In this document: piece by piece, positions 37,843 through 62,634 of the stretch | Numbering within the stretch: position 1 is the stretch's first letter | Layout of the letters: the number at the start of each line of letters is the position of its first letter | NCBI GenBank assembly: GCA_000004985.1 | Contig: GG738912.1 | Strand: one strand, 5' to 3' | Length of the DNA stretch: 64,000 nucleotides | Source of the DNA: Naegleria gruberi | Lineage: Eukaryota | Translations under genes and position numbers: made by a program | Notes under the pieces: generated by a model | Seen by the model: only the letters and a program-made list of their open reading frames with translations | Told to the model about the DNA's origin: nothing | The model's database searches: none

Positions 37843-37967
37843 GAAACGTGATATTGAGTTTAGTGCAATTTACAAAAAAGCGAAACGTGATCAGCTATCT
37901 TGCAATCTCTTCCAAACATCTGCGTGCGTTTTTAAATTTCATACGAAACGTGATATTGAGTTTAGTC
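37843..37967 (+). promoter_or_regulatory. Three copies of a CGAAACGTGA(TATTGAGTTTAGT) motif in a bidirectional promoter region
   Basis: The gaaacgtgat motif occurs at 37843, 37883 and 37946. The first and third copies each continue into a 24-nt stretch that is identical apart from its last base. The cluster sits between the kinase gene (minus, ATG 37655) and the gene starting at 38001. The same motif recurs upstream of the Hsp70-like gene at 62563-62626. Confidence 0.45.
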
Positions 37968-38000
37968 TAACTTTTTCATTCCATTTCAACCTAAAAAAAA

Positions 38001-38918
38001 ATGTTTGAACATAATGATCAAGACAGTGCTGTCACTCTTTCTCTCATCGATTTTCATTCATACATTTCCACCAATTTATTAGAAAAATTCAAAAAGAAAC
38101 TTTGCTCACCTCTTTCTCCCCTGATTGAATTTTCACAGAATTTTACAAAAATTTACAAACTTCCAGAGCCATATGTTTACAATGTGGCAATTTGTCAGGA
38201 GCTTAATTATTTAATTGTCGGCTCGTTTTCAACTATAAATTTTTATAATTTGGTGACTCATGAAGGATTATTTCAAATTCCATTTGATGATGGAATTTAT
38301 GACTTGGATTTGGAGAGGGAAAATTCAGGTCAATTTAATTTGATAGTTTCTAGTAGAAACAATGAGTTATTCAAGTTTAATTTTACTGAAATGATAAAGA
38401 CGAAGGAGTTAGGAGAGCCAATTTGGAAATCTGAAAAGAGATTTAACCAAATTTGGGGTCTAACACGTTTCAAAACTGAAATTTATGTAGTTGATCATAG
38501 AGAGAAAATGTTTGCTTTTGATTTAAAGACAGGAAAATTACGCCATGATATTCAAATCGATCTTTCTGAGAACTTGGTTGATTTGGTTTTCACTCCAGAA
38601 GAGGAAATGATTGTGTGTGGAATAGATCAGTTACACATTTTGAAATTCAATGAAAAATCTAAAGGATGGGAAAAGATTAAAACCTTGGATAACAAAGATC
38701 ATATCATTAACGATTGCTTCAGTGTATGTTATGAAAAAAAGACGAGATTGATCTATCTCACCGACATGTATGGTAAATTATTCATATTCGATAGACAATT
38801 CAACCTATTGAAGGAAGTGGAAGGTTTGTCATATCCATATGGTGTTGCAATTAATGATAAGAATGGAGAATTGTTCCTATGTAACACTGGAGCATGTGAA
38901 ATACTAGTTTACAAATAG
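38001..38918 (+). CDS. NHL-like repeat beta-propeller protein (305 aa)
   Basis: The C-terminal blades resemble NHL repeats (KLFIFDRQFNLLKEV, YPYGVAINDKNGELFLCNTGACEILVY). It starts at ATG 38001. Confidence 0.4.
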   Translation: MFEHNDQDSAVTLSLIDFHSYISTNLLEKFKKKLCSPLSPLIEFSQNFTKIYKLPEPYVYNVAICQELNYLIVGSFSTINFYNLVTHEGLFQIPFDDGIYDLDLERENSGQFNLIVSSRNNELFKFNFTEMIKTKELGEPIWKSEKRFNQIWGLTRFKTEIYVVDHREKMFAFDLKTGKLRHDIQIDLSENLVDLVFTPEEEMIVCGIDQLHILKFNEKSKGWEKIKTLDNKDHIINDCFSVCYEKKTRLIYLTDMYGKLFIFDRQFNLLKEVEGLSYPYGVAINDKNGELFLCNTGACEILVYK

Positions 38919-38994
38919 GTCAAATCATTTTTTTTACAATTTTATTGAATTTTTCAATAAATCTCAATAATTTCAATCGAATAGATGATTATCA

Positions 38995-39108
38995 ACATAT
39001 TGGAATGCAATCACATCCACTGATTTACAAATTGGATAACAAAATAGATTTATTGGAATGCAATCACATCCACTGATTTACAAATTGGATAACAAAATAG
39101 ATTTCAAA
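38995..39108 (+). repeat. Tandem duplication, 2 x about 57 nt (attggaatgcaatcacatccactgatttacaaattggataacaaaatagattt), in the PAQR promoter
   Basis: There are two near-identical adjacent copies, 30-140 nt upstream of ATG 39137. Confidence 0.7.
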
Positions 39109-39136
39109 ATTCTCAATTTTTAAAAATTAAAAAAAA

Positions 39137-40288
39137 ATGTCCAAACCATCGGAACAAAAATCATCATCTCCGACTATTGCCGCCACCACTGATGAAAGTA
39201 AACAATCACAGTGTGGATGTAGTGGTCATCATCACCATCAACATCATGAAAAACCACTCAAATTATTTTCCATGTATCCAGAGTTGGAAGAAGTGACCCC
39301 GAAGGATGTTAGTAAATCAGCACTTCATGCCATTTTGGTTGATGATAACAAATTCCTTTGGAGTGGATACAGAAAATTACCAGTTAGTGATTATTGGAGA
39401 TCTTTTCTTTCCGTTTTTACACTCCATAATGAAACTATTAATATTTGGAATCACTTTATACCATCATTGATTTATTGTGTTTTTGCTTTTTATATTAATC
39501 ATTATGTAACTGAGGCTAATCCGAATGCCAAGTTTTTGGATAGAGCAAGTTTTATCTTTTATTGTGTTACTGGTATTTTCACATTTGGATTCAGTGCAAT
39601 GTATCACACTTGGAGAATGAATAGTATTAATGATTATCATTTCTGTTTATTGTGTGATATTAGAGGTATTGTTGTACTTGTTTCAGGTGCCAATGCTTTG
39701 AGTATTACTTTGCAAATTAAGGATTATGAATATTGGCAATGGATTTACTCTACTGTTAATATTGTTTTGGTTGTCTTTTTCATCTTTTGGATTAGAAAGA
39801 TGGTTAGAGAGAGATTGACTAATCAAAGAACAATTTACTTTACCATTTACAGTCTCATTCCTTTATTTACCTTGGTTCATCGTTTCATTTTGCAATCATC
39901 CTCAGTGAATGATTTCTATAGTATGATCAAGTATTGTATCTTGCCAAGATCAACTCACGAATATTTTGGAATTTCTCATGCCCATGTTAATTTGAATATT
40001 AAGGATATCATGTGGCAAGATAATCACTCAACTAATTCTTATTTCCCTAATGGAGTTTTGGATGTTAATTATGAATTAGTTCAACTTTTCATTGTCAATT
40101 ATTTACTTTTAGGTCTTGGAATGTTCATCAGAGGTTACAAGGCACCAGAAAGATGGATTCCTTACAAATTTGATTTATTTGGAGCTAGTCATCAAATCTT
40201 CCATTTCATGTCAGTTTATGCCAGTTTTTTAGTAGTTCACGGATTTTACATTTTATATTCTCAAGGAGCTTTCCCAGATCGTTTGTAA
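39137..40288 (+). CDS. PAQR (progestin/adipoQ receptor, hemolysin-III family) 7-TM protein (383 aa)
   Basis: The family motifs are present: LHNETINIWNHF, SAMYHT and the C-terminal HQIFHFMSVYASF. There are multiple hydrophobic helices. The N-terminal Ser/His-rich cytosolic tail contains HHHHQHHEK. Confidence 0.75.
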   Translation: MSKPSEQKSSSPTIAATTDESKQSQCGCSGHHHHQHHEKPLKLFSMYPELEEVTPKDVSKSALHAILVDDNKFLWSGYRKLPVSDYWRSFLSVFTLHNETINIWNHFIPSLIYCVFAFYINHYVTEANPNAKFLDRASFIFYCVTGIFTFGFSAMYHTWRMNSINDYHFCLLCDIRGIVVLVSGANALSITLQIKDYEYWQWIYSTVNIVLVVFFIFWIRKMVRERLTNQRTIYFTIYSLIPLFTLVHRFILQSSSVNDFYSMIKYCILPRSTHEYFGISHAHVNLNIKDIMWQDNHSTNSYFPNGVLDVNYELVQLFIVNYLLLGLGMFIRGYKAPERWIPYKFDLFGASHQIFHFMSVYASFLVVHGFYILYSQGAFPDRL

Positions 40289-40625
40289 ACTATAAATTCC
40301 GTCTTCTTTTGTGTTGTAATGGATTCGAATATAATTTTCAATAATTCAATAAGCAAATTTCAGAACACAAATTTTTATCCAAACCGCAGTCATGTAAATA
40401 ACCTGGGAAGTGATACAAAAGTTTCATTCTGCTGTCTCGAGTCATTCCCCTTTTGCAATAGGGACATTTGAAAAGTGACGCATCATATTTCATCATTAAA
40501 AAAATTAAGCATTTGTTTCGTTTTTAAACCACCGGCGGTTGATTCATCTTCTACAAAATCAACAAACAACAAATACGCGTCCTTGTCGGTTGTGCTTTCA
40601 ATTTTTAAACGAAACTAAACTAAAG

Positions 40626-42101
40626 ATGAAGAGTCTGTTAGTTCTTCTCATGTTATTAGGAGTGGCTACTCTTCTAATGATGATCACTCCAGCAAGCCTT
40701 CAAAAAGAGCTTCCAATTACAATTCAATCATCAACAAAGGACAAGGTTATGGATGAATATTTAAAACAAATTACAGTCGAAACTATTGATTCAAATGATG
40801 ATTCAGGTAACAAGACAGTTAATTGTTGTAATGTTTGCCCAGTTCCAAAGATTATTATTATTCCAAAATATACAACAATCAAAGTTCCAATTAATATTCC
40901 ATATCCAGTATTGAAACCAATTCCACCACATCACGATGATGATGTTGTTGATAAATGTCCATCTGATTATCAATTCGTTCCACCAAACAAGTGTTCTAAA
41001 ACAATAATTATTGAAAAGAAGAAGAATTGTCCAATTGGATTTATTAGAATTGGTGAAACTGAATGTTTGAGATTGGTTATTATTCATAATAATATTCCAC
41101 CAATGAAAGTTGTTTGTCCACCTGGATATATTCCATTTGTAATTTCAAAGAATTCAGAGGAATATTTGAAATTGAAGGATTTACCAAAGGATTTACCTTC
41201 TAATGATTTCTTCTTTAAGAATGATACAAAGAATACTGTTTTAGGATGTAAGAAGAGTAAGAAAATTCATATTGATGAGGAAATTCCACATTGGACTTGT
41301 CCAAAGGGTTATTATTATCATTCTCCTTTCCATTGTGTTAAATCAGTTGAATGTCCAAAGAAGGGTGGTTGGATCAAGTTGACCGATGGTCGTTGCATTC
41401 GTACTTTATTCAAATGTCCACGTGGTTATAAGAAAGTTGGTAGACATGGGTTGACCTGTATCAAGATTAACATGAAATGTCCAAAGGGATACAGACAATC
41501 AAAGAAGAATCCACGTTTATGTTTAAAGACAAAGATCATTGTCAAGATTAAGTGTCCAAAGAAATCAATTTACAGTGAAGAAAAGAAGACCTGTATCTGG
41601 AAGAAATGTGCTACTGTCAGATGTAATGGAGCTTTGAAATGTCCAAAGGGTCAAATCTTGGCTCTCAAATCCAAGAAGGATTGTTGTCCATCATGCGTTC
41701 CATGTGCATGCTCTGCTGAATACCATCCAGTTTGTACCAAGGATGGTGTCACTGTTTTCAATTTGTGTTCTGCCAAATGTTTGGGATTGGAAGTTAAACA
41801 TGAAGGTGAATGTAAGATTACTGAAATTATCAAGATCACCAAGACATGCCCACCATGTGATCAATGTAAGAACGTTCCAAAGAAACCAGTTTGTGGTGTT
41901 GATGGTGTGACCTATCCAAACACTTGTGTTGCCAAGTGTGTCACTTCTGGTAAATTCGAAATGAAGAGAAAGGGCAAATGCAGTCCTGCTGATTGTGACG
42001 AAGCTGAATCCAATAAGACTGTCTCTGAATTCCTTCCATTCTTTGAACGTGTTTTAAAGTCTGAATTGATCAATGCCAAACAAAGAAAGCAAAAGAAATA
42101 A
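40626..42101 (+). CDS. Secreted cysteine-rich protein with two C-terminal Kazal-type inhibitor domains
   Basis: The ATG at 40626 gives MKSLLVLLMLLGVATLLMMITPASL (a signal peptide). CPKGY-type Cys modules follow. The Kazal units are CACSAEYHPVCTKDGVTVFNLCSAKCLGLEVKHEGEC and CKNVPKKPVCGVDGVTYPNTCVAKCVTSGKFEMKRKGKC. The track ORF starts earlier, at 40539. Confidence 0.7.
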   Translation: MKSLLVLLMLLGVATLLMMITPASLQKELPITIQSSTKDKVMDEYLKQITVETIDSNDDSGNKTVNCCNVCPVPKIIIIPKYTTIKVPINIPYPVLKPIPPHHDDDVVDKCPSDYQFVPPNKCSKTIIIEKKKNCPIGFIRIGETECLRLVIIHNNIPPMKVVCPPGYIPFVISKNSEEYLKLKDLPKDLPSNDFFFKNDTKNTVLGCKKSKKIHIDEEIPHWTCPKGYYYHSPFHCVKSVECPKKGGWIKLTDGRCIRTLFKCPRGYKKVGRHGLTCIKINMKCPKGYRQSKKNPRLCLKTKIIVKIKCPKKSIYSEEKKTCIWKKCATVRCNGALKCPKGQILALKSKKDCCPSCVPCACSAEYHPVCTKDGVTVFNLCSAKCLGLEVKHEGECKITEIIKITKTCPPCDQCKNVPKKPVCGVDGVTYPNTCVAKCVTSGKFEMKRKGKCSPADCDEAESNKTVSEFLPFFERVLKSELINAKQRKQKK

Positions 42102-42539
42102 ATTCTTCCTCAACTGTTTTGACCCCAATATTGAAAAGATCATAAAAATCTTCGCACCAATCACTTGACTATAAATTATAATGGCTCATATATGAAGTGA
42201 GTTTGAGGAATTTTAAATCTTAAAATCCCTTAACAAATTGTGATGAGCTCCACTACTATCAGTCTGAATTTATTTTACTATGTGCCATCCCGATCTCAAT
42301 TTTTGAATATTAATGTACTTATCGACTTTAAAAAAAATACTTTACGGAACAAGCGTATTCTTGTGGATTTGTTGTTGCGCGAACATGGAACATTAAGAAT
42401 TGTTTGCGATATGTTTGATCAGAAAAAACTGCCAATATTCCAGCTATCATTATTATCATCGTGATGGAGGTAAAACTTGCAGAAGGTTGGTATTTTCTCG
42501 AAGGGTTGTTTTCATAATAATAATAATTAATGAAATGAA

Positions 42540-43124
42540 ATGTTAATAGAGAATGTTATATTTTCGGATGATGTTTGTTTTGAGATAATTTCCATGATTG
42601 ATGATTCTTGGTTTATTTTGAATAATTGTTGTTTAATTTCAAAACAATGGTTTAATGTGATCAAGGAACGTTCAAAACTTGTTATTCAATTTAACGAACA
42701 ATTTACAGAAAATAGAATTGAATTGTTAATGAAAAGTCAATTCATGAATAGTATTGTAAATGTTAAGTTTTCTTATATGTTGCTTAACTCTCCAGATCAA
42801 GTTAAATTCATAACTGAAATGAAACAATTAACATCACTTAGTATTGCTGGCAATCAAATTGGTGTAGAAGGAGCCAAATTTATAAGTGAAATGAAACAAT
42901 TAACATCACTTGATATACATGATAATGGAATTGGTGTAGAAGGAGCCAAATACATTAGTGAAATGAAACAATTAACATCACTAAATATTGCTGACAATCA
43001 AATTCATGTAGAAGGAGCCAAATTTATAAGTGAAATGAAACAATTAACATCACTTAATATATATTATAATGGAATTGGTGTAGAAGGATCCAAGTACATA
43101 AGTGAAATGAAACAATTAGCGTAG
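42540..43124 (+). CDS. F-box-like / RI-type LRR protein with 72-nt perfect tandem repeats. It is possibly truncated.
   Basis: The N-terminus is F-box-like (CFEIISMIDDSWFILNNCCLISKQWFNVIKE). Four or more 24-aa LRR units follow (SEMKQLTSLNIADNQIHVEGAKFI), encoded by near-identical 72-nt DNA repeats across 42810-43110. It is a paralog of 16267-17179. Confidence 0.5.
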   Translation: MLIENVIFSDDVCFEIISMIDDSWFILNNCCLISKQWFNVIKERSKLVIQFNEQFTENRIELLMKSQFMNSIVNVKFSYMLLNSPDQVKFITEMKQLTSLSIAGNQIGVEGAKFISEMKQLTSLDIHDNGIGVEGAKYISEMKQLTSLNIADNQIHVEGAKFISEMKQLTSLNIYYNGIGVEGSKYISEMKQLA

Positions 43125-43574
43125 AATAAAACGTGTAACTTTATTAATGTCTTATATCAATAACAGCCTGAGACCAAATCGTTATACTAACTTAGATTCT
43201 TTGCGGGGATTTGGTGTTTTGTTGATATTTAAGGCTGCCTTACATTGTAAAGATTCGTTATTTTAATGGCCTCTCTGTGGAGTATTATGAATGTGATTGA
43301 TTATTTTCCAAACATTGATGAGTTTACGTAAGTCAAACAATTCAGTGATTGGTTTTGAAGCGTTTTCTTGTCACTAAATAGGATGCTCCGATGGTGCTTA
43401 ATAAACTGATGTGCTGTAGTCTTTTCCATAATTATTTAAAGTCAAATTTCTCAAAAAACAATCATTTCTCATACCTTATTACTTCATTACGACTGTCGTG
43501 TTAGATGTTGTTCGTAGACAATTTGATTATTCAACGAACTGGACGATTACGATATTTCACATTTCACAAAAAAA

Positions 43575-44895
43575 ATGATTCAACACCAAGTCATCAAGTG
43601 CATTGTTCTGTTTTTCGTGTTGATTATTGCACAACTGATGCTATTGATGATCAATGTGAATGGCATGACCATCACAACGATGACCACTCCATCTGCATCA
43701 GCATCTTCATCACAATTTCTCAACGCTCAAGCTCCTGAAATTTCCTATCGGAATGGAAGATTTCTCCGAGATAAGAGTGCCATTGTTTTTGATTGGAGTG
43801 GATTCATCATTTCCACACAATTTACTCATCGTGAGAATGCCTCTCAACCTATCAATTCATTAAAGATGGTTGTTCATTTGGATGATCCAGGAAATTTGTA
43901 TAATTGTTACTTGTGGAAAATTAGTGAAAATAAGAGAGTGAAATTGTTGCAGGAAAATGTCTTGACAACTGTTAAGGGAGAAAATGCATTTGGATTGGTG
44001 TTTAATTGGCCTATGGATAAGGATTCTCAATCATATGTTGTTGAAATTGAAATTGAGAAGAGAACTGAAGCTATGGTTGGAGTTGTTCAATTTTATGGAA
44101 TTACCTTTTTACAATCTGTTCAATTAATTCAAAGAAATTCAATGAAATTGAAGGAGAAATCAAGTACTGATCTCAAGATTGAATTCATTGGAGACTCAAT
44201 TACATGTGCATATGGAAATATGGGTAAGCCGCCTTGTGCCTACACTCCTGCCACTCAAAACGTACATGAAAGTTTTGTTGAAAAGACAGCAAGATATGTC
44301 AATGCTAGTGAAATTCACATTGAATGTTGGTCTGGAAAGGGTGTAGTTCGTAATTTTGCAGATAAGAACACTACCAGTGTTGATCCATTCCCAGTTTACT
44401 ATCCAAGAACTTTGGCAAATGATGCAAACAGTGTTTGGGAATTTAGAAAGACATTTATTCCAGATATTGCTGTAATTACTTTGGGAACTAATGATTTCAG
44501 TACTGCTCCTAGACCTAGTTTTGAACAATTCTCAAATGGTTATCAGAAATTCCTTGATTTCATTTTTGGAAAGTATGCTCCAATTAAGGGACCATCTTTC
44601 AAGATTGTAATGGTTGTAAGTTTCATTGTTCAAAATTTCATTTCAATTGTTAATCTATTGGATACTATTGGATATGTAGAGTGTTGTGGCCACTGAAAAT
44701 TATGGAGATTACATTCAAAGTATTGCTGAAAAGCAACCTGGATATGGAAAAAATGTTTTCTTTGCTAATTTGAGAGATGTTTGGCGTGGATTTGGACAAA
44801 ATGATTGGGGATGTTCTGGACATCCAAATGAAAATGGTGATGAAAAGTTGGCTCTTGCTCTCAGCTCTTTCCTTTCCAAAAATGTTTTAAATTAA
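43575..44895 (+). CDS. Secreted SGNH/GDSL hydrolase (esterase), join(43575..44625, 44680..44895)
   Basis: The signal peptide is MIQHQVIKCIVLFFVLIIAQLMLLMINVNG. The N-terminal region is beta-rich. Block I is FIGDSITCAYG, block III is ITLGTNDF and block V is GCSGHPNENGDEKLA. A 54-nt GTAAGT..TGTAG intron spans 44626-44679. Confidence 0.7.
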
Positions 44896-44966
44896 TTTTT
44901 ATTTAATTTTTATTATAATAATGAATTTATTTTTTATATAATTCAATCTCAAAAATTTATTTACAA

Positions 44967-47261
44967 TTAATTACTGCTTGTTAGATCTTCTTCTTGACCT
45001 TCTTCAGCATTTTCCAAAAGACCTGGGTCATATTGATTCAACCAAGCATCACAACTCATGACAAGTGGAAGTTTAGCTAGTTTTTCCATGGCAATTCTAA
45101 CTTCTGGATTGACAAACTTTGGTTTCTTCTTAAAGAATGCAGAATAATAGTTTTGAGAACAAACTTCATCAAAAACTGGCAAGGCCTTCTTGGAATTGAA
45201 ACAATGACACCAAAATGCATTGAATCTAGTACTCTTAAAGTGATCTGGATCTTCCAACCACAAATCTTCAACTGTAATTTCCTTTTGAACCTTGAAAATT
45301 CCTTCAATGATGAAAGCAACAGCTGGGTTTTGAACTCCACTTCTGGCAATGTCGAGCAGATAATTGAAATTGTAAGCTTCTTCATTTACAAAGAGCTCTG
45401 CTGGATCTTCTTGTGGACCAATGAAGAGAGCTCTGAATGATGGAAGAACAGCTTTTCTCATATAGGCAGAAACGAAATTATCTGAATTAGTTTCGTCACA
45501 CAATGAGGAAAGGGAAACTTGCTTCAATTTTGTTTGAGTATCCAAATATGAAATTAAACAATTCACTTGATTGACAAAGCTTGCAACAAAATGATCTGGA
45601 TCACCCAAATCTGGATATTCCACAGTATCTATTCCAGCAATATTATAATTAATAACAATTTCATCTTCTTCCTCAATGACATCTTCTGGTTCTTGAGTGA
45701 GAGGTTTTTGAGCTTTTGGAGCAGTTGGTTTCTTTGGAGCATCGTCGTCCTCATCTTCATCGCTACTGAAATCGAGAGAGAGGTCACTTTCATCTGAATA
45801 GTCAGAGTGATCATCTTTCTTCGCTTCCTTATCAGATTTGACCACTGTTCCATTACCAATATCCTTATCGACAATCTTTGGTGGTTCAAGTTGGAGAAGG
45901 GAAATGAAACCTTTGGCTCCCTTATTGGAATTTTGCTCGTTTTGTTTTCTTTCCTTCCACATGGCCAATTCATTCTTGGTTAATAAGGATTCGAATTTGG
46001 TTTCGTTCTTATCTCCGAGAGCGAATAAAATCTTCTTCACTCTAACAACTTCTTCCTTATTCATATACTTTTCAGCTACACTCGAGTTGATTGTGTATTC
46101 AATAGTATTGGAGAGTTGACTAACAATACATTTTCCAAGTTTTTCTTGAACCATGGCATTCTTCTTAACATGTTTCAATCCTTGTTTGATAATGAACTGA
46201 GCTACTCTGTACAATGAATTGAATTGATCCTTATTTAACTTTAAAACCAACATGTCTTGATCTCCTTCTTTTCTAACCATTTGATCGATATTGAAAAGAG
46301 CGAAACCCATCAAGGCAATTTCACCAATATTGAGATTGGATTTTGGTTTCACGGCAGAGAATGAAGAAAAGAATTTTCCAAGTAAATTTCCTGAAGATCC
46401 TGATGCATTTTCCTTCTTCTTTCTCTTCATTGGAGCATCATCGTCATCCATACAGAGCTCTTCATCACTTTCTTCCCTGTAGTCTTCATCAAAGAAAAAG
46501 TCCTCGTCCTCATCTGGATCTAATTTCACTTTCCATGCATCCTTGTCCTGTGGATCGTTGGAAATGAGAGCAATTCTCTTCCACACCAATTGTTTGGCCA
46601 AAAGCTCCTTCTTTGACTTTTCCAAGTGTCCAGCATTAATTTCCTGTTCTACCAATTGAATCGACTCGTAGAAAGTCTTGAGGAGATAGGACATTGGACC
46701 ACAATTCTTTCCTGAATTATCCTTCTCTTCCTTAATGACCTTATTATAGAACTTGGCAATGGTTTGATTCTTTTCACTGATAATATCAAGGAGATCGTAG
46801 TGTGGATGCTTTCTCGAGAGTCTTTCAGCTTCTTGTTGTAAAATAGCAGCAATTTCATTTTCAAATTTGGTCTTGGCTTCCATCTCCTTGACAACTTGTT
46901 GAGCTTCATAGGAGAGTGGAGAAACCTCCTCAAAGGTATGATCTCTCACATAATTCATCAACAAACTCAAGTTCTTTTCCTCGATACCTTTTTGAATTTC
47001 CTTCTTTCTTCTGAAAAATTCCTTCAATTGATCTCTTTTACTGACCGCAATTTCTCTGACTTTAATCATTGGTTCTGGACGAACTGAGACAGAGTCTTCT
47101 TCATCCTTCTTCTTTGAATTATCCTTCACAGTACCATAACTATCACAAACAGCAATGATATCATCCAATTCCTTCAAACTCTTTTTCACATTGTAAGCAT
47201 AGAAAATTCTAGAAACCAAGTGAGTACACAATTGACCCAATTCATGTTGTGAAATTTCCAT
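44967..47261 (-). CDS. Large (764 aa) conserved-looking protein with acidic D/E/S stretches. It is possibly a nucleolar or ribosome-biogenesis factor.
   Basis: This is a single long ORF with acidic tracts (DEDEDFFFDEDYREESDEE; SDESDLSLDFSSDEDEDDD). Helical regions are present. No family is recognised with confidence. Confidence 0.4.
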   Translation of the reverse strand: MEISQHELGQLCTHLVSRIFYAYNVKKSLKELDDIIAVCDSYGTVKDNSKKKDEEDSVSVRPEPMIKVREIAVSKRDQLKEFFRRKKEIQKGIEEKNLSLLMNYVRDHTFEEVSPLSYEAQQVVKEMEAKTKFENEIAAILQQEAERLSRKHPHYDLLDIISEKNQTIAKFYNKVIKEEKDNSGKNCGPMSYLLKTFYESIQLVEQEINAGHLEKSKKELLAKQLVWKRIALISNDPQDKDAWKVKLDPDEDEDFFFDEDYREESDEELCMDDDDAPMKRKKKENASGSSGNLLGKFFSSFSAVKPKSNLNIGEIALMGFALFNIDQMVRKEGDQDMLVLKLNKDQFNSLYRVAQFIIKQGLKHVKKNAMVQEKLGKCIVSQLSNTIEYTINSSVAEKYMNKEEVVRVKKILFALGDKNETKFESLLTKNELAMWKERKQNEQNSNKGAKGFISLLQLEPPKIVDKDIGNGTVVKSDKEAKKDDHSDYSDESDLSLDFSSDEDEDDDAPKKPTAPKAQKPLTQEPEDVIEEEDEIVINYNIAGIDTVEYPDLGDPDHFVASFVNQVNCLISYLDTQTKLKQVSLSSLCDETNSDNFVSAYMRKAVLPSFRALFIGPQEDPAELFVNEEAYNFNYLLDIARSGVQNPAVAFIIEGIFKVQKEITVEDLWLEDPDHFKSTRFNAFWCHCFNSKKALPVFDEVCSQNYYSAFFKKKPKFVNPEVRIAMEKLAKLPLVMSCDAWLNQYDPGLLENAEEGQEEDLTSSN

Positions 47262-47321
47262 AACAGCTATACATGTTCAATTCAAATTTTGTAGAAACAA
47301 TTCAATAAAATTTGAATCATT

Positions 47322-48430: not shown

Positions 48431-48639
48431 TTTTTTTGATTGATGACTTGTTTAACTGAACAGTAATGATTGTTGAGAGATGTTTCACTGACAATGAAGT
48501 CTTTCACTGAAGTGATGAACGAACAGCGAATGCAAAGTACTTCATTGTTAATTATGGAAGTTTTGGTATTAATAATTTTACAGAATTTATATATTTAATA
48601 TTTACTATTATACAAAATGAAGGTTGTGATTCAGAAGAT

Positions 48640-49374: not shown

Positions 49375-49650
49375 TTTTGTTGTTTTGTTTTGATTTTGTT
49401 ATTGTGGAGTTTAGTGGATTGCTTCTCTGACTATTTATTCGAAAGTTAGTTGACGAATAGACCTACCCAAACTTTCAATAATGGAAACACATCAACAGCT
49501 GTACTTACCAACTGAACGAAAATGGAAAGTCATGTTATCTCTCAACCTATTAATACCCTTAAATACCCCAATCTAAACAAACCAACACACAGGCATTCCA
49601 ATAACAATTTTGTTATTTAGGCTATCAGATGATAAAACCATTTCAAAAAA

Positions 49651-49768
49651 GACTACAGCACCACAGGTTCCCAAGTTGTCTCCAACCTCAGTACTGATGT
49701 GGCTCGACGATGCTTAACTTCTCAAATCGGACGGGATGAGGTGCATTCATCGTGATATGGCCGTAGCC
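49651..49768 (-). rRNA. 5S ribosomal RNA, solitary copy
   Basis: The minus strand reads GGCTACGGCCATATCACGATGAATGCACCTCATCCCGTCCGATTTGAGAAGTTAAGCATCGTCGAGCCACATCAGTACTGAGGTTGGAGACAACTTGGGAACCTGTGGTGCTGTAGTC. This matches the eukaryotic 5S consensus blocks (GGCCATA, CCCGTCCGAT, GAAGTTAAGC, GTACT, GGGAA, GGTGCTGTAG). Helix I pairs the 5' and 3' ends. A TTTTTT terminator follows immediately downstream. Confidence 0.9.
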
Positions 49769-51243: not shown

Positions 51244-51336
51244 GGAGGTTATTATTCCAACTATAATTGTTTTCCAAGAGGAATATAGTCGATTTTGGAA
51301 TTATTAAGGATCCAATCTGGTCTGTTAATAAACAAA

Positions 51337-54882: not shown

Positions 54883-55736
54883 TTTTTTAGTACGCCAATC
54901 CATAAAACCCCTCTGCTACTTCTTCAGACGATTCAATGATAAAATTGTTTTTCGTTGTTGGTTCGGTATTTTACGATAAAATCGCAATTCCACAAGATAC
55001 GGTTTCCGAGGGTATGTTTTGTCCTTTCTACAAGTTGTGGAACAGTGGGAAGGGTGTATTAATTGTGCAAATTGTGAAAAGTTTGTTAGCATTGGAGATC
55101 CTGCATGCATATTTGGAGATTGAACCCGTTCGAGTTGTTTGGTTTAGTTTTGTTGTAATGTGTTAGTCTTTGAAAGTGTTATTAGAAATGGAAACAATGT
55201 TTCATTTGTGAAAGTATAATTGTATTCGTTGGAAAGTGAGTATTTGATTGGGTTTAATTGTTATTCTTGAGTTCCATTCTAATTATTGAAAATATTCATT
55301 CGTATTTTAATTCTTGTTACAAAAAATTCCTCCCATGCATTGAACAAGTTTACAATTTTTGAAATTCAATCATGATGTTCTATTCTTCCATTACTTGCTT
55401 AATCCTAAAAAGAAAAGCACACAAATACAACAAATCATCTTCTTCTCTCAATTCGGAACATTCCTTTTCCGTACCAAATAAATCAATAAGAAAAAAACAT
55501 CAAACAACCTTTCATTCTCTCTCTCAATATCATCAAAGCGAAAATTATTTTTAGCCTTTGAAGAAGAACAGCAAACAACAACACTTGTAAATACAAAAAA
55601 GCAACATACAGCAATCAAATAACAACTCTAATATATTGCTTATTGAAGTAACGTTTGGAATACAACAATAACAAACACAGTTTAAAAGAATTATTTTTGT
55701 AAATAGGAAAAGGATTAATAATTAATTATTGGAAGG

Positions 55737-56379
55737 ATGGCACAAAGAAGAGTAATGAAGGATTTGACAACACTGCAACAAGTACCTATTGAAGGATTGA
55801 CTGCTGGACCGATCGGAGATGATGTTTTTAGTTGGAATGGGTATATTGATGGACCTGTAAGTGTTTGATGATTTAAATGTTGGAAATAATTGTATTTACT
55901 TGTTTTGGAACTAATTAGGTGGATACACCATATGAAGATGGAGTTTTTAAAGTCAAAATTACATTTCCAACTGATTATCCTTTCACTGCTCCACGATTGA
56001 GTTTTGGTAAGTTTATTGAACCAGTTGAAAATTCTATAAACTTTAATAGTGACACCAATTTATCATCCAAATGTAAATAGTGACGGGAAAGTTTGTCTCT
56101 CAATACTAGACAAGGACTGGAATCCCTCTGTAAATATATCACAAGTATTAATGAGTAAGTATTCGAAATATTATTTTGAAATATTCACTTGTAACAGCTG
56201 TACAATTACTACTCAAAGAACCAAATCCTGAAAGTGCAGTTCTTCCTAGCATTGGTAAACAATATGAGGATGATCGTGAAGCATTCAATAAGGAAGCTAG
56301 GAAACACACTCAGGAACATGCAAAGAAGAAAACAGAGGAAGAGAACAAAGAGGAAACACAGGAAAAAGAGGAGAAATAA
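55737..56379 (+). CDS. Ubiquitin-conjugating enzyme E2 (UBC4/5-UBE2D-like core with a K/E-rich C-terminal tail), join(55737..55856, 55919..56006, 56050..56154, 56198..56379)
   Basis: The spliced protein is [40 protein letters not shown]|[29 protein letters not shown]|[35 protein letters not shown]|[15 protein letters not shown].... The active site is HPN...GKVCLSIL. Three GTAAGT introns of 62, 43 and 43 nt are present. Confidence 0.8.
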
Positions 56380-56484
56380 ATTTATATATATTAATTAATT
56401 ATTAATTATTAATTAATAATTTAAATAGGCAATTGATCATAAGGAACAAATATTAATAATACAAAAAAAATAGATCGCAACACC

Positions 56485-57810
56485 ATGAGAGAAATTGTCA
56501 GTCTTTTTATTGGAGGATGTGGTAACAGGATTGGAAATTGTTTTTGGAAGGGTATTATGAGGGAACACAATATTGATACAAATACAGGAGAGAGGATTGA
56601 AGGATTTGAAGATGTTGAAGAAAATTTAAATATTTTCCTTGATGAGAGGGAAGATAAATTTGTGCCAAGAGTTGTGATGGCCGATCTGGAGGCTGAAACT
56701 ATTGAATCAATGATTAAGAATGAGAATTTATTGGAATCAAAGTTTGCTTCCTTTCAAAGATGTGGAAATGGAAATTGTTTCTCTAGGGGAATGTACACTG
56801 ATGGAGCTCTGCTTATTCGAAATATAATGGATCAAGCAAGGAAGAGTGTAGAACAGTGTGATTTCTTTGAAGGATTTCAAATGTTTCATTCCATAATTGG
56901 TGGATCTGGATCAGGGCTTGGTTCATTAGTTGTTTCGAAACTCAGAGAAGAATTCCCTGACAAAATGATGGCAACTGCTACTGTATTGCCATCAAATAAG
57001 GATGACTATGGATCTAGGTCTCTTTCACATTATAATGCTGGTCTATCCATGCATTATTTGGTAGAGAATACTGATTTTGTAACTTGTCTAAATAATGAGG
57101 CTCTTGGAAATATCTGTAATAGCAAATTAGGACTGGAGAATTATGGCTATGAACATATGAATAATTTAATCACTCAAGCAATTTGTGGTTTTACTAGTCC
57201 ATTAAGATTTTCAGGAATTTTAAATTCTTCATACAGAAAGCTTTCAACCAACCTCGTTCCATTTCCAAGACTACACTTTTTCACTGTATCTCACTCACCC
57301 TTCTGTCTGGGTGATACTGAACCAACAGTTGAGGGATTAACAAGTGATGTTTTTAATCAGACCAATCTACTGATAAGTATGGATCCAAGTTTAGGCCGTT
57401 ACATGACCAATATCATTACTTATCGTGACAATGAGCCGAATATTTCCATGATTGAGGAATATGTAAGAAAATTCAAAAAGGATAATGAAGCTATTTTCAA
57501 AGAATGGGTGCCAAACAATATTCACACTTCAGTATGTAAATCTATTTCACCAGATTGTCCAACCAAGAGCTCAGCAACAATGGTATCCAATACCAGTGCA
57601 ATCAAAACAGTTTTTAACAAGATTTCCGACCAATTTACTGTAATGTTCAGAAGAAGGGCGTTTCTGCACCAATATTTAGAAGATGGTATGGATGAGATGG
57701 AGTTTACAGAAGCGGAATCAAACTTTAATGATCTTCAATCTGAATATTATGATGATTGGGGTGCGTGGTGTGAAGAAGAGGAAGAAGGAGAGTATGATGA
57801 AGAGCCTTAG
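56485..57810 (+). CDS. Divergent tubulin-family protein (beta-like; 441 aa)
   Basis: The N-terminus is MREIVSLFIGGCGNRIGNCFW, against beta-tubulin [21 protein letters not shown]. The GTP-binding motif is SIIGGSGSGLGSLVVSKLREEFPDK, against [23 protein letters not shown]. The acidic C-terminal tail is EEEEGEYDEEP. Confidence 0.7.
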   Translation: MREIVSLFIGGCGNRIGNCFWKGIMREHNIDTNTGERIEGFEDVEENLNIFLDEREDKFVPRVVMADLEAETIESMIKNENLLESKFASFQRCGNGNCFSRGMYTDGALLIRNIMDQARKSVEQCDFFEGFQMFHSIIGGSGSGLGSLVVSKLREEFPDKMMATATVLPSNKDDYGSRSLSHYNAGLSMHYLVENTDFVTCLNNEALGNICNSKLGLENYGYEHMNNLITQAICGFTSPLRFSGILNSSYRKLSTNLVPFPRLHFFTVSHSPFCLGDTEPTVEGLTSDVFNQTNLLISMDPSLGRYMTNIITYRDNEPNISMIEEYVRKFKKDNEAIFKEWVPNNIHTSVCKSISPDCPTKSSATMVSNTSAIKTVFNKISDQFTVMFRRRAFLHQYLEDGMDEMEFTEAESNFNDLQSEYYDDWGAWCEEEEEGEYDEEP

Positions 57811-58027
57811 AACTAATAAACATGAAGCAACATTTTCTTGCAACTCAACCTCTCATTACTAATTAAGCCAATTGGGGATTGATATTAATTTTCAAACAAT
57901 AACAAAAACTTCACTAGTACTTTACTGTTCTGATCCTTCTTACTCATGTTAATAAAAACCAAACTTTCAAACACTTTCTCTTCTCCACGATTTGTCCAAA
58001 ACCAAAATCATATGGCTCGCCACGTTA

Positions 58028-58098
58028 CCGTCTCGGGAGGAATCGAACCTCCGTCAATGGATTCAAAGTCCACTATGCTACCATTACACCACGAGACG
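58028..58098 (-). tRNA. tRNA-Gln (anticodon TTG)
   Basis: The minus strand reads CGTCTCGTGGTGTAATGGTAGCATAGTGGACTTTGAATCCATTGACGGAGGTTCGATTCCTCCCGAGACGG. The acceptor stem is perfect. The anticodon loop is CTTTGAA and the T-loop is TTCGATT. T-runs lie downstream. Confidence 0.85.
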
Positions 58099-58362
58099 AG
58101 CACATTAAGGTTGATTATAATTTAGTTATTACACTCATGACCATTTTCAATCTGTACTGTATTTGCGTTTCATGTCCCTTTGCTAAATTACATTGTATAA
58201 GAAAGGACTTGGAACATATTGCCATTTACAATTCAAAACGTAGAAACATTTTTTCTTGCTCTTCCTCATTACTTATTAAGGCAATAGAAGATTTGGCGCC
58301 TTTAAAATTCACACTTTCAAACAATTTTTCACAAACAAAAAAACAACAACACCACAACCAAT

Positions 58363-59433
58363 ATGAACAGAAAGGCCATGATTTCACTTTCCCCACTTTT
58401 ACTGTGTACAGTGCTGTGTACAGCCCTCACACAGGTCACACCCTCCTCACCTGACACCACAAATTATTATTTTCTATCAAGAGAGCCATCGTCATCAATT
58501 CTTAATATTATCCATCAAGAACACACTGATAATATTATAATAATTAATGATTGGCTTAATGATCTTGCCATCTCCTATTGTGTGATGTTAATTTACGCAC
58601 TCATCATGCTAGCCATGTCCCTCCAGAATCATCTTTCCACAGGAGAGCAATTTCTCAATGATGAAGAAGTATCCTCATCAATAGAGACTCAACACACATC
58701 TTCTCAGATAACAACAGAGGAGAGTGAAGGCAATGATCATGGCGATAAGGAGGTGGACGATCTGAATATGAGTATGATCGAAATGGTACCCGAGATTGTT
58801 GAAGAAGGTGGCTCCCAAGATTTTCCATCCATTGAAACACAGAATCCTCTCACCATCTCAACTCTCTACTCCCATTCCAAGATAACAGAAGGTAATGATG
58901 ATAAGGAAGGTGAAGATTCTGATACGCTCGAAGAAAGTTCCTTTGATTTATCTTACATTGAAACACCACGAAGAGAATCAAAAGACTTGCATCATGATTA
59001 CAGTCCTAGTGATGCATCAACCATAACTCCAAGAAGCCAATCAGATTTGGATCGCTCAGACCTCAGTATTGTGTCCTCTCCAAATGATGAAGAATCAACG
59101 TTACTAGATTGTTCTCTCAATCATGATGATTTTGAAATCAATGAACAATTTACTGAACCACCACCATCAGAAACAACTTCTTTTGAAGAATTAATGGCAA
59201 GAAACCTTGAACGTATCACATCATTAAACAGTGAAGTAATGAATGAATTTGCAAAGGAAGCAAGTATAATCCTTGCACAACTTCAAGACATTAAGGGTTA
59301 CAATAATGTGGAAGAAGTTGAGAAAGAAGAATTTCTTTTCAGCCTTGCAATGGAAATCTATGAAACAAGATTAATCAGAATGGATGTGGAGGCCCAAAGA
59401 ATTAATCTCAAAATTCAAAACCTTACAATTTAG
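58363..59433 (+). CDS. Acidic Ser/Glu/Asp-rich protein with an N-terminal hydrophobic segment and a C-terminal helical domain (356 aa)
   Basis: This is a long ORF from ATG 58363 (MNRKAMISLSPLLLCTVLCTALTQV). No family is recognised. Confidence 0.4.
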   Translation: MNRKAMISLSPLLLCTVLCTALTQVTPSSPDTTNYYFLSREPSSSILNIIHQEHTDNIIIINDWLNDLAISYCVMLIYALIMLAMSLQNHLSTGEQFLNDEEVSSSIETQHTSSQITTEESEGNDHGDKEVDDLNMSMIEMVPEIVEEGGSQDFPSIETQNPLTISTLYSHSKITEGNDDKEGEDSDTLEESSFDLSYIETPRRESKDLHHDYSPSDASTITPRSQSDLDRSDLSIVSSPNDEESTLLDCSLNHDDFEINEQFTEPPPSETTSFEELMARNLERITSLNSEVMNEFAKEASIILAQLQDIKGYNNVEEVEKEEFLFSLAMEIYETRLIRMDVEAQRINLKIQNLTI

Positions 59434-59989
59434 GAAATTGTATTGTATTTGATAAACTATCTTCAATTTTCATTATAATTTCATAAATTTGTGTTTCTCT
59501 TTTCCAAGTTTCATCAATTCCAATCGCTTCAACATATGGAGATGGATCAGGAACAATCCATGATGTTTGGCATCACATCCATCTGGGTCTTCTCACTATG
59601 TTTATTATCATGTGAAGTTTGTTAAAAATGTGTGTCCCATCTCCAACTATGGAGCACATGGAATGGCTGGAACACTAGGAACATTAACAATGTTTGTTGA
59701 TGTTCTGGTTTCAATGATTAGAAGTGTCAAAGGTATTATTTACAATGGAATTGAAAAGTATCGTGTTACTTTCTTTTAACATATCTTTCAACTCGCTTCT
59801 GTTGTAAACTAAAAACGCCATTTGTTAAAAACGACACTTTTCAAAAATGTACCTACTTAAAAATCTCCAAATTTGAACAATTACAATATTCTTCCATAAT
59901 TGTTCACTGACAAGTGTCAAATAAATAGAAGCTTCCACCTGCCATCCATCACTTTTTCACAAACAAAAACAAAAACAAATACAACAAAC

Positions 59990-60349
59990 ATGTCCTATCC
60001 AATTCCAACTCCATACGAATGGTCAACCACTCTCGATATTGGCAATGCTGAATTAAACGAACAACATAAGAAACTCTTCACTTTAATCAATGCCTTGGAT
60101 GCCAAGAGAAGTTGTGGCACAACATTGAAGGAATTATTAGATTACGTTGTTTTCCACTTCAAGACTGAAGAAGATTTGTTTGCTAAGGCTGGTTGGTCTG
60201 AATCTGCCTCTCATAAGGAAACTCATGATAAGTTTGTTCAGGATGCTTTGGCATTGACAAGCGTTGGAGATGGTGAGATGCAATTTATTAAGCAATGGTT
60301 GATTACTCACATTTGTGCCTCTGATATGAAGTATAAGGGTGTTATTTAA
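59990..60349 (+). CDS. Hemerythrin-like metal-binding protein (119 aa)
   Basis: From ATG 59990 the protein is MSYPIPTPYEWSTTLDIGNAELNEQHKKLFTLINALD...LLDYVVFHFKTEEDLF...HKETHDKFVQ...WLITHICASDMKY. The His/Glu/Asp ligand positions have hemerythrin spacing (H..x3..H, HF..EE, H..x3..H, H..x4..D). The track start at 59900 is not an ATG. Confidence 0.7.
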   Translation: MSYPIPTPYEWSTTLDIGNAELNEQHKKLFTLINALDAKRSCGTTLKELLDYVVFHFKTEEDLFAKAGWSESASHKETHDKFVQDALALTSVGDGEMQFIKQWLITHICASDMKYKGVI

Positions 60350-60600
60350 ATATTATCCTTTTTTGTAATTTTAGTAAAAAAACAATTTTGTAAATTAGTT
60401 TATTTTTTGATATTGTCGGCAAAAGTGTTCGAAATAGTCTTCCTCTGATTCATGTCTCACTCTGATTGTTCATATGAAATTGGAACGGTTATTAGAAAGC
60501 TCATCTAAAACAAGAGGTTAATGGACATATTAGATTTGTTTTGAATAAATGCAATTAAAGAACTCAATTAGACTTAAGTATTTAAAATTTACTGGAATTT

Positions 60601-62513
60601 TCAGGTTAATGACATTTTATACCAACAATTGATTTCTTCTAATTTTTTTTCAATAGAACTCAAAGTCAAATGTTCTTGTAAAGTTTCAACAAACGTTTCA
60701 CAATTGCGCAAAGTAGTGTTTGCTTGATGGGTGTTACCAAATACTTTTTGTTTGATTACTGACATCTTACCTTTAACAAAGTATACCTTCTCAGTCAATT
60801 CATGCAATTTTTCCCACATTTCAGAATTTTCCTCTGGTTGACTGAGTGAAATCTGATTGTTACTGAATGTGAATTTTTCACTGAAGAATGTTGACCTACT
60901 CACTACATCATGTACATTAACAGTAAACACGCCGTCTTGGTCAACTCTGCATTCAACACATATTTTATGGTTAGAGGCAGGCTTTTGATCAATTTTTATG
61001 ATTGAATTGGTTAGTAATTCTAACATTGAGCTAATTTCAGATTCTCCCTCTCTGAAGGTCAAATTAATCTCTTTCGTTTCGTCTGATGAATTTGTAACTG
61101 CCAATAGTTTTTTACAAGGCAAAGGTGTTCCCTTTTCCAGAACCTTAATTAAGGAATTATTTTGATATTCCTTAATTCGAATAGTTCTTGAAAGACATTC
61201 AGTAATAGGAATGGCTTGTTTTTGATAAAGATCATGAGCCAAGTAGGCAGCTCCATAACTAACGATATAAATTATGTCACTATTTTGTGGTCTAGTAATT
61301 GTCTTTAACAAGTCAACTCACTGTCAAGTTATTAAATCTTACTTACAACTCCAGGTAGTTCATCTTGCACCCAATCTTTCACAAATGGAATAAGAGATGA
61401 TCCTCCAACCATAAGAACCTCATTAATATCACATCCAAGTTCTTTAAATTTTGAAATTAAGGTCTGGACCCTTTTTTGGAACGCCTCCTCACAATCTCTC
61501 TTAAATTGCTCATAATTCACAGAAATAATCAAAGATAAATCATTCTCAGGAATCTCAATACTAAAGTATTCAACATTTCGTCTAGTTGAACATAAGGTTT
61601 CTTTCAAAATTCTTGCCTTTGCACTCAACTTGTGTTTAACTTCTTTCTTTAAATTATTCAACTGAGATGTCAATGATTTTTCTTCGAGTGTCATGGAAGA
61701 TGCTCCAAACCAAACAGGTTTAATGTAATTTTGGAAAACCAAATTATCAACATCAACACCTCCCAAAGTAGAATCTCCCTCAACCCATTTCACAATAAAT
61801 TCCAATTGACTATCATGATTTTTACAAACTTGAATGAGTGAAATGTCCAAAGTTCCACCACCAAAATCAAATACCAAGTAATTACCTTCCCCTCTTTGAG
61901 GATCTTTCTTAAAATAGTAATAGGCAGCTGCGGATGGTTCTGGTAATAATTTCAAAACCTTAATGTTTGATTTTCTAGCTGCTTCCAAAGTTGCATTCTT
62001 TTGGAAAACTCCAAATTCAGCTGGAACTGTAATGACTGCTGGAATTTCTTGATCTTTTCTAAATACGGTTACATTTTCAAGAATTTTTTGAGCTACCAAT
62101 TCTGGAGAAATGTCAAGAAACTTTCCGTTTTCAAATACGAAACGACATGTGGCAAGTTGGTTCTCTTGATTAGCAACTATTTTGTAATCTAATTTCTTTT
62201 CATTTTCTTGAATGACGGCCACTTGATTGTCTTTTCTATCCAAACATTAAGAATAGTCAAAGTTTCGTCAACTAACTTACCTTTTACCAATGATTCGTTT
62301 AGTTTCTGTAGCGTAGAGAACACCATTAACATCTTCCAATTCTCCAACACCAGTTTGAAATGATTCTCCGTTTATACAGCTTACATTCACAACAGAGTTT
62401 TGGAAATTACATGATCCTTGTGAAATATATTTCGTATATCCAAATTCATCAATGTACGAAACAATGGTTGTGCTAGTACCTAGATCAATACCAATACACT
62501 TAATATCACTCAT
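60601..62513 (-). CDS. Divergent Hsp70-family protein, join(62513..62281, 62235..61347, 61302..60601), about 607 aa
   Basis: Exon 1 reads MSDIKCIGIDLGTSTTIVSY...TKRIIGK. A 45-nt intron follows. Exon 2 carries the NBD motifs AVITVPAEF, LVFDFGGGTLDISL, GGVDVDN and VLMVGGSSLIPFV. A 44-nt intron follows. Exon 3 reads IYIVSYGAAYLAHDL plus a divergent substrate-binding domain with no EEVD. The splice phases were verified. Confidence 0.75.
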
Positions 62514-62562
62514 TTTTTTTAAAAGAAACACATACTTCACATCATGCATGACATATAAACTA

Positions 62563-62626
62563 TCACGTTTTCGAATAAACCCACTCACGTTTCGAAATTT
62601 AGAGTTTACAATATTCACGTTTCGAA
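62563..62626 (-). promoter_or_regulatory. Three copies of TTCGAAACGTGA in the Hsp70-like promoter
   Basis: On the plus strand tcacgttttcgaa, tcacgtttcgaa and tcacgtttcgaa lie at 62563, 62585 and 62615. On the gene strand (minus) they read CGAAACGTGA. They sit 50-115 nt upstream of ATG 62513 and share the core motif with 37843-37967. Confidence 0.45.
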
Positions 62627-62634
62627 TCAATCTT

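Follow-up and report, generated by a model that had tools for sequence, protein, structure and literature searches.

Clusters of a shared octamer-core motif upstream of two lineage-specific genes in Naegleria gruberi: putative transcription-factor binding-site arrays

We know of almost nothing that has been described about transcriptional control in Naegleria, or in any other heterolobosean. In the literature, we found no described Naegleria promoter or cis-regulatory motif, and nothing relevant for the gene identifiers or the motif string considered here. A 64-kb stretch of Naegleria gruberi nuclear DNA (the window) carries the same short motif in two clusters, one upstream of the ATG at 38001 on the + strand (region 1) and one upstream of the ATG at 62513 on the − strand (region 2). 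Why would the same short sequence be repeated in front of two different genes? A preliminary description of this DNA had read the clusters as transcription-factor binding sites and had suggested a link to stress through one of the two genes. We asked how far the motif, its arrangement and the identity of the genes bear out that reading. The motif copies and the local repeat in which some of them lie are as follows.

37842–37852, + strand: region 1 distal copy, TGAAACGTGAT; core at 37844–37851, starting 157 nt before ATG 38001
37881–37891, + strand: region 1 middle copy, CGAAACGTGAT; core starting 118 nt before ATG 38001
37944–37954, + strand: region 1 proximal copy, CGAAACGTGAT; core starting 55 nt before ATG 38001, with AGTTTA at −42
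37835–37871, + strand: first copy of a 37-nt block, 84% identical to 37937–37973, holding the 22-mer GAAACGTGATATTGAGTTTAGT
37937–37973, + strand: second copy of the 37-nt block, partner of 37835–37871
62615–62626, − strand: region 2 distal copy, TTCGAAACGTGA; core starting 109 nt before ATG 62513
62585–62596, − strand: region 2 middle copy, TTCGAAACGTGA; core starting 79 nt before ATG 62513
62563–62575, − strand: region 2 proximal copy, TTCGAAAACGTGA, with one extra A; core starting 57 nt before ATG 62513, with AGTTTA at −48

The invariant core of the motif is the octamer AAACGTGA, which has six matches in 64 kb (1.77 expected), all of them inside the two clusters, and the consensus is roughly (T/C)GAAACGTGAT. 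The exact decamer CGAAACGTGA is found four times in the window, at 37881 and 37944 (+) and at 62585 and 62615 (−), against an expectation of 0.03 from dinucleotide shuffles. The third member of each cluster is a variant: TGAAACGTGA in region 1 (37842–37851) matches the decamer at 9 of 10 positions, and CGAAAACGTGA in region 2 (62563–62573) carries a one-base insertion. Hence, the clusters of three first reported stand, as six copies of the octamer core, but the exact decamer is present two plus two times rather than three plus three. The inclusion of TTCGAA in the motif was overstated: the hexamers preceding the core in region 1 are GATGAA, AGCGAA, and TACGAA, and because only region 2 has TTCGAA before the core, this hexamer falls outside the conserved motif. 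The shorter string ACGTGA occurs eight times on both strands of the window, and six of these occurrences are in the two clusters.

All six copies are in the sense orientation relative to the downstream gene and lie 55–157 nt before the start codons at the two loci, with core starts that agree with the positions first given relative to ATGs 38001 and 62513. The proximal copy, AAACGTGATA, starts at −55 in region 1 and at −57 in region 2, and in both cases AGTTTA follows. The intercopy spacing (39, 63, 30, and 22 nt) obeys no common rule, which counts against a binding-site array. Within the 37-nt block of region 1, 37843–37864 and 37945–37966 are the same 22-mer; the repeat first described as a near-identical 24-mer is therefore real but shorter, and its two copies are exactly identical. 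We read the block either as a local duplication or as a composite element of greater length, and since sites 1 and 3 of region 1 both lie within it, these two sites may not be independent.

Chance is rejected as the origin of this pattern. With a cluster defined as at least three copies of an 8-mer within 130 nt, AAACGTGA is the sole 8-mer in the window that forms clusters at two places, with three copies in 110 nt and three copies in 60 nt, and none of 300 dinucleotide shuffles yielded any 8-mer with two such clusters. Several copies of a short motif within a few hundred nucleotides are thus present above chance, and the clustering goes far beyond chance, in support of the original reading. 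On a position-weight matrix derived from them, the six sites score 19.5–26 bits, and the next best site in 128 kb (both strands) reached 14.5 bits. By a rough hand estimate (~42 genes × 160 nt / 128 kb), a cluster would fall in sense orientation at most 160 nt from a start with a probability of ~0.05, and both clusters together would do so with a probability of about 0.003. We inspected 20 further start regions of the window, and all of them lack the motif. Two CpGs are retained in every copy in a window with a CpG observed/expected ratio of 0.45, and such retention in CpG-depleted DNA suggests constraint.

The genes that surround the two clusters are listed below.

38001–38918, + strand: gene 1, NAEGRDRAFT_74253, 305 aa, a 6-bladed NHL-type beta-propeller
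35070–37655, − strand: protein kinase gene NAEGRDRAFT_59622, divergent from gene 1, with a 345-nt intergenic region in common
60601–62513, − strand: gene 2, a divergent Hsp70-family gene, 607 aa after removal of two GT-AG introns
62280–62236 (45 nt) and 61346–61303 (44 nt), − strand: the two GT-AG introns of gene 2
62635–63927, − strand: upstream open reading frame (ORF), 430 aa, with its stop codon 121 nt before ATG 62513

Region 1 is flanked by the annotated start codons of two divergent genes, whose proteins are both exact NCBI matches. Its motif copies lie 188–298 nt from the ATG of NAEGRDRAFT_59622 and are antisense to this kinase gene. The only relatives of NAEGRDRAFT_74253 are two N. 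gruberi paralogues, NAEGRDRAFT_74162 and NAEGRDRAFT_73714. For gene 2, the public protein set contains neither an identical nor a close protein, so the gene appears to be unannotated. If the beta-tubulin gene of the window is jgi_44804, gene 2 probably lies on scaffold_65 at about 162–164 kb. Its product matches the Pfam HSP70 profile PF00012 (152 bits, E = 2e-44) over profile positions 2–522 of 599, that is, across the nucleotide-binding and substrate-binding domains, with BiP and Hsc70 chains matching at about 1e-33; identity to the best homologue from any source is 30%. As this match is very weak for the Hsp70 family, gene 2 encodes a divergent paralogue and not a canonical stress Hsp70. 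That closest homologue is not an orthologue (P0004), and it comes from a protist-like contig (L131) without an upstream motif cluster. Both target genes are lineage-specific, and their products, an NHL-type beta-propeller and an Hsp70-family protein, are unrelated to each other, as had been proposed.

Given the position of the upstream stop codon, region 2 fills the entire gap between two tandem genes. Its distal copy ends just 8 nt past that stop codon and may therefore lie in the 3′ UTR of the upstream gene. We also looked at the upstream ORF itself. A single-sequence AlphaFold model of its product had a pLDDT of 33, and a BLASTP comparison with the Hsp70-like protein was not significant (E = 0.33), although two short motifs, IGIDxGT and LxVGGxxxIP, occur in the same order in both.

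We suggest that both clusters are probably arrays of one cis-regulatory element, putative sites for a single transcription factor. A sequence-specific factor of this kind would bind three copies in each of the two compact promoters, and by acting on both it would put these lineage-specific N. gruberi genes under common control. The proximal copy, ~55 nt before the ATG and just upstream of AGTTTA(T/G), would place the factor beside the transcription start. The first reading of these sequences as a binding-site cluster thus holds for the pattern (sense orientation, two short upstream regions, and an equal proximal distance), from which we infer the binding. The full motif matches the consensus of no known factor. 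Two classes of candidate fit it: readers of an ACGT core (bZIP or bHLH) and Zn2Cys6 'C6' zinc-cluster proteins. C6 fingers have been reported as the dominant transcription-factor family in Naegleria (PMC3537659). The element is plausible as a previously undescribed one of an ordinary kind.

Could the copies act in RNA instead? They would then be transcribed in both 5′ UTRs, and for region 2 also at the 3′ end of the upstream gene, and would act on mRNA stability or translation. The sense orientation of six of six copies would suit such a role, as would the Hsp70-like reading frame, which stays open for 47 codons upstream of its ATG, through the cluster. Moreover, an ATTAAA overlaps the stop codon of the upstream ORF; with a signal-to-cleavage distance of 15–20 nt in N. 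gruberi (PMC11529991), the end of the upstream transcript would fall within the distal copy or close to it. Folding, however, is no better than that of shuffled sequence (z = −0.22 and +0.36 for the two regions), for region 2 to be a 5′ UTR, a promoter would have to lie within the coding region of the upstream gene, and N. gruberi UTRs are very short (median 3′ UTR, 39 nt; PMC11529991). Rfam and tRNA scans returned nothing in either region. We consider an RNA-level element unlikely.

Similarly, we see little chance that the motif is a core-promoter element, with the proximal copy serving, in one subclass of promoters, to position the basal transcription machinery, and the remaining copies being duplicates. 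The proximal copies at −55 and −57, each with a TATA-like AGTTTA just downstream, are in favor of it; the other 20 start regions, which lack the motif, and the presence of three copies at variable spacing, atypical of core elements, are not.

A third alternative is that the clusters are a non-functional short dispersed repeat or a transposon remnant that was inserted or expanded by chance upstream of two genes. The locally duplicated 37-nt block in region 1 has this character, and paired decamer copies are common in unrelated metagenomic tandem repeats. We scanned metagenome and viral collections for CGAAACGTGA-N10-40-CGAAACGTGA and obtained >120 metagenome matches and 9 viral matches. On inspection, each of 129 loci proved to be a tandem repeat, low-complexity DNA, or a palindromic operator of prokaryotic type, and none was similar to the window; a single Naegleria-like contig was found among the metagenomes (L130, 1365 nt), and the motif regions fall outside it. 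Against a repeat, the two loci have in common, beyond the motif of ~10–15 nt, only a few scattered A/T-rich words and an inverted GAGTTTA, which argues that they are not a dispersed repeat within the window. Neither region resembles any other part of the window, we saw neither inverted repeats nor target duplications at the flanks, and both CpGs are kept in every copy despite the CpG depletion. The preliminary description had itself named a repetitive family as the competing possibility; within the 64-kb window, we found neither extended common sequence nor further copies, and no membership of a dispersed repeat or MITE. A repeat origin therefore strikes us as improbable.

Finally, we rate as very improbable a role in stress, in which the motif would be a variant of the heat-shock or unfolded-protein response elements and would induce the Hsp70 paralogue. 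One target does belong to the Hsp70 family, and the ACGTG core partly resembles the UPRE TGACGTG(G/A). On the other side, neither promoter has a three-unit nGAAn array, region 1 lacks TTCGAA, and the other target is a beta-propeller; the Hsp70-like protein has diverged strongly and, as read from its sequence, carries neither a signal peptide nor a KDEL. For the array search, a heat-shock element was taken as at least three contiguous inverted nGAAn units, GAAnnTTCnnGAA or TTCnnGAAnnTTC. Three such arrays occur in the window (27106, 37053, and 47202), all inside ORFs, and a single GAATATTC dimer lies at 37702, near the kinase start and 240 nt from the nearest motif copy. We thus reject a canonical heat-shock element, in agreement with the first account of the motif. 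What that account had called a stress-paralog target is indeed of the Hsp70 family, but the protein is an extremely divergent member, and with a heat-shock element in neither promoter, a link to stress or heat shock is unsupported. Per-gene time courses of heat shock, mitosis, and differentiation in N. gruberi exist, as indicated by Velle et al. (bioRxiv 10.1101/2024.01.08.573270).

Returning to the proposed transcription-factor arrays, six clean, oriented, promoter-proximal copies offer a handle for a regulon search and for a factor pull-down. The genetic toolbox of Naegleria is still limited, and the motif could also seed inducible promoters. The feature is of an ordinary kind, is found at two loci only, and comes without the stress connection first suggested for it. 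A more far-reaching version has a small but appreciable probability: the motif would be the first recognisable heterolobosean cis-regulatory word, marking a lineage-specific regulon of fast-evolving 'orphan' genes, and it would be read by a member of the expanded Zn2Cys6 family of Naegleria. Such a member would be a zinc-cluster factor from outside the fungi, with a site of a new type, CG-N3-CG.

How does the motif compare with known systems? Like heat-shock elements bound by HSF, it is found in front of an Hsp70-family gene and includes GAA, with TTC also in region 2; unlike them, it lacks alternating nGAAn/nTTCn pentamers in a 5-bp register, and in region 1 it has no TTC part. We rejected the CHR element (TTYGAA) as a candidate, as TTCGAA is found in region 2 only. 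The decamer also occurs, often in tandem, in the palindromic operators of bacteria and phages that the metagenome scan turned up, (G)TCACGAAACGTGA(C), but these are perfect palindromes in GC-rich prokaryotic contigs, whereas the Naegleria copies are non-palindromic and stand in unrelated contexts.

Clusters of ACGT-core sites in plants and fungi (ABRE/G-box multimers) come closer: an ACGTG core is repeated several times within ~160 nt of a start codon, and its presence in front of genes that are unrelated points to a regulon. The plant 'T/G-box' has the sequence AACGTG and is bound by the bHLH protein MYC2, and the site of yeast Pho4 is CACGTT. All six Naegleria copies contain AACGTG with its ACGT core, a match at the level of sequence only. 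None is the palindromic CACGTG, which occurs in the window only at 447 and 41419; a G-box or canonical E-box was therefore rejected. Further, the conserved flank GAAA...GA(T) fits no described variant, and N. gruberi is a heterolobosean, a group from which neither a factor nor an element of this sort has been described. Meanwhile, Zn2Cys6 proteins read CG-containing triplets at fixed spacing, for example, TCG-N5-CGA by AflR and CGG-N11-CCG by Gal4. The Naegleria motif has no CGG/CCG, and its 5-bp CpG spacing fits no characterised member, and we infer the link purely from likeness: as in Zn2Cys6 sites, two CG-containing triplets stand at a fixed short spacing (CGA-AA-CGT), here in an AT-rich, CpG-poor promoter.

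Six copies of a short motif lie in two regions of the window, three ahead of the ATG at 38001 (+; region 1, gene 1) and three ahead of the ATG at 62513 (-; region 2, gene 2), and we call them distal, middle, or proximal by distance from that ATG. The preliminary description counted six exact decamers, three per region; we found four exact copies of CGAAACGTGA in the window versus 0.03 expected, and the other two are variants:

37842-37851, region 1, variant copy TGAAACGTGA
62563-62573, region 2, variant copy CGAAAACGTGA, with one extra A

Common to all six is an invariant octamer, AAACGTGA, whose matches in the window (six, versus 1.77 expected) all fall in the two clusters. ACGTGA is rare, with six of its eight occurrences on both strands inside the clusters. 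The conserved word is roughly (T/C)GAAACGTGAT; TTCGAA, previously stressed as part of the motif, precedes the core in region 2 only. Scored with a matrix derived from these six sites, the sites themselves reach 19.5-26 bits, and the next best window position reaches 14.5 bits. We also screened the window without bias for 8-mers that form two separate clusters, each with three or more copies inside 130 nt. Only AAACGTGA passed, and none of 300 dinucleotide-preserving shuffles yielded any 8-mer with two such clusters. Chance is excluded as the origin of the pattern, even allowing for a motif picked by eye; the pattern is real and non-random. A literature search on Naegleria returned no description of a promoter motif, and this one is previously undescribed.

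The clusters occupy the following gaps:

37655 (-) to 38001 (+), region 1, 345-nt gap between divergent starts
62635 to 62513 (-), region 2, whole 121-nt gap from the stop codon of the upstream ORF (62635) to the ATG (62513)

The two starts bounding region 1 are exactly those of the annotated kinase NAEGRDRAFT_59622 (-) and of gene 1, NAEGRDRAFT_74253 (+). Cores begin 157, 118, and 55 nt ahead of the ATG in region 1 and 109, 79, and 57 nt ahead in region 2, and all six copies point with the downstream gene, in agreement with the preliminary description. The proximal copy in both genes is AAACGTGATA, followed by AGTTTA at -42 (gene 1) and -48 (gene 2); that this copy serves as a core-promoter element is an unlikely reading. 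A perfect 13-nt inverted repeat, AAAAAATGTTTGA (37648-37660 and 37996-38008), contains both divergent start codons of region 1, giving both proteins Met-Phe as their first residues; the repeat may be coincidental, added to the A-run that usually precedes the ATG. This A-run is the sole feature common to many of the 20 other start regions inspected in the window, none of which carries the motif.

Regions 1 and 2 share the 10-15 nt motif, scattered A/T-rich words, and an inverted GAGTTTA, and neither resembles the rest of the window. Two versions of a 37-nt block in region 1, 84% identical to each other and with a 22-mer in common without mismatch, hold the distal and the proximal motif copy; the block reflects a local duplication or, alternatively, an extended composite element. 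Within the 64 kb, a dispersed repeat is rejected, with no longer common sequence, no other copies, and no sign of a repetitive element family; a non-functional repeat is improbable.

The window, part of a 238,573-bp contig, is N. gruberi nuclear DNA: ORF 38001-38918 (gene 1) shows 100% identity with a predicted protein of N. gruberi, and four further ORFs in the window are exact matches to NCBI entries of this species. Gene density is high and the genes are ordinary eukaryotic ones, including a kinase, a USP7-like protease, a sterol reductase, beta-tubulin, and hemerythrin, with three RNA genes among them:

24730-24803, -, tRNA-Arg(TCT)
49650-49768, -, 5S rRNA gene (105 bits)
58027-58099, -, tRNA-Gln(TTG)

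The window is 33% GC, and its CpG is markedly depleted (observed/expected 0.45 overall), the motif copies being small islands of retained CpG. N. gruberi is known for a TET-like enzyme.

The two downstream genes are unrelated, as first described, one encoding an NHL-type propeller and the other an Hsp70-family protein. NAEGRDRAFT_74253 has no significant Pfam match and, at a relaxed threshold, only weak beta-propeller/NHL matches. Modeled by AlphaFold together with its two paralogues from N. gruberi, it is predicted with confidence (pLDDT 81.6) to be a 6-bladed propeller nearest the TRIM71 and Thin NHL domains; no homologues were found beyond N. gruberi. Another gene 3 kb away (32132-34885, -) encodes a large protein that combines a teneurin-like NHL domain with many EGF repeats, and the motif is absent upstream of this gene.

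Gene 2 (60601-62513, -) has two short GT-AG introns (45 and 44 nt) and after splicing encodes an intact protein of 607 aa. The alignment of this protein to Pfam HSP70 spans profile positions 2-522 and scores only 152 bits, the BiP and Hsc70 structures match at ~1e-33, and its best relative among 5.8 billion proteins is 30% identical. It had been called a stress-protein paralog; the family placement holds, the stress designation is unsupported, and judged by its sequence gene 2 encodes a genuine member of the Hsp70 family that has diverged strongly, rather than a canonical stress Hsp70. The public protein collection holds no identical or close match and no N. gruberi entry for it, and since its neighbours match exactly, gene 2 appears to be unannotated. 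Its closest known relative is encoded on L131 (JGI metagenome contig Ga0606064_0156; 45 kb, 33% GC), a contig rich in orphan genes, with short introns of the GTAAGT...TAG form, that is probably from an unsampled protist; no motif cluster lies upstream of this relative, which is not an orthologue. The upstream ORF (62635-63927, -; 430 aa) matches no family, gives no significant BLASTP match to the Hsp70-like protein, and yields a single-sequence structure model with pLDDT 33. Two stretches, IGIDCGT toward the N terminus and LLLVGGLWNIP close to the end, are collinear with signatures of the Hsp70/actin fold, so the ORF may represent a second paralogue, arranged in tandem and extremely divergent.

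On balance, we favor the view that the two clusters form a small array of transcription-factor binding sites common to two lineage-specific genes. This view draws on several features: the motif is confined to two short stretches upstream of genes, every copy is sense-oriented, the proximal copy lies equally far from both ATGs, each copy keeps two CpGs in CpG-poor DNA, and the regions have no longer stretch in common. It is also supported by a rough hand estimate (~42 genes x 160 nt / 128 kb), which puts the chance of one sense-oriented cluster lying no more than 160 nt from a start at ~0.05, and that of both doing so at ~0.003. Position, orientation, and distance from the ATG fit the binding-site clusters originally proposed; we infer that a transcription factor would bind the repeated copies in both promoters and that genes 1 and 2 would be co-regulated through them.

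It is doubtful that the copies act at the RNA level. All are sense-oriented, no stop codon interrupts the Hsp70-like frame over the 47 codons ahead of its ATG, a stretch that spans the cluster (62514-62654, -; ~3% expected by chance at this base composition), and an ATTAAA (62634-62639, -) shares bases with the TAA terminating the upstream ORF, but RNA folding gave no structure signal in either region (z = -0.22 and +0.36). In N. gruberi, AAUAAA-type signals lie 15-20 nt before the cleavage site, the median 3' UTR is 39 nt, and "dual-use" stop codons occur (PMC11529991). The ATTAAA and TAA may be such a combined stop codon and poly(A) signal, and given these distances the upstream mRNA may end in or near the distal copy of region 2. 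A combined signal of this kind would place the end of that mRNA within the promoter of the next gene.

Known elements account poorly for the motif. The window's only three trimeric nGAAn arrays all lie inside ORFs, which bears out the earlier statement that this is no canonical heat-shock element, and a stress connection is unsupported. CACGTG, the G-box, is in none of the copies, and an Rfam scan found no family in either region. When metagenome and viral collections were scanned for the decamer in pairs, the loci inspected were all unrelated to the window: tandem repeats, low-complexity DNA, or palindromic operators of prokaryotes. Among these, the palindrome GTCACGAAACGTGAC occurs two to three times, ~20-30 nt apart, in GC-rich prokaryotic/phage contigs (L106, L051, L126, L129, and L123); these repeats are probably repressor operators or iterons that share the decamer by coincidence.

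Two factor classes would be compatible with the binding-site array. ACGT-core readers (bZIP or bHLH) are one candidate: AACGTG, the hexamer in the motif copies, is the plant T/G-box, and CACGTT is a variant Pho4 site. The other is the Zn2Cys6 zinc-cluster family, whose members recognize CG-containing triplets set a fixed distance apart. This family reportedly predominates among Naegleria factors (PMC3537659). A binding-site array is an ordinary kind of feature, and this probable one is seen at two loci only.
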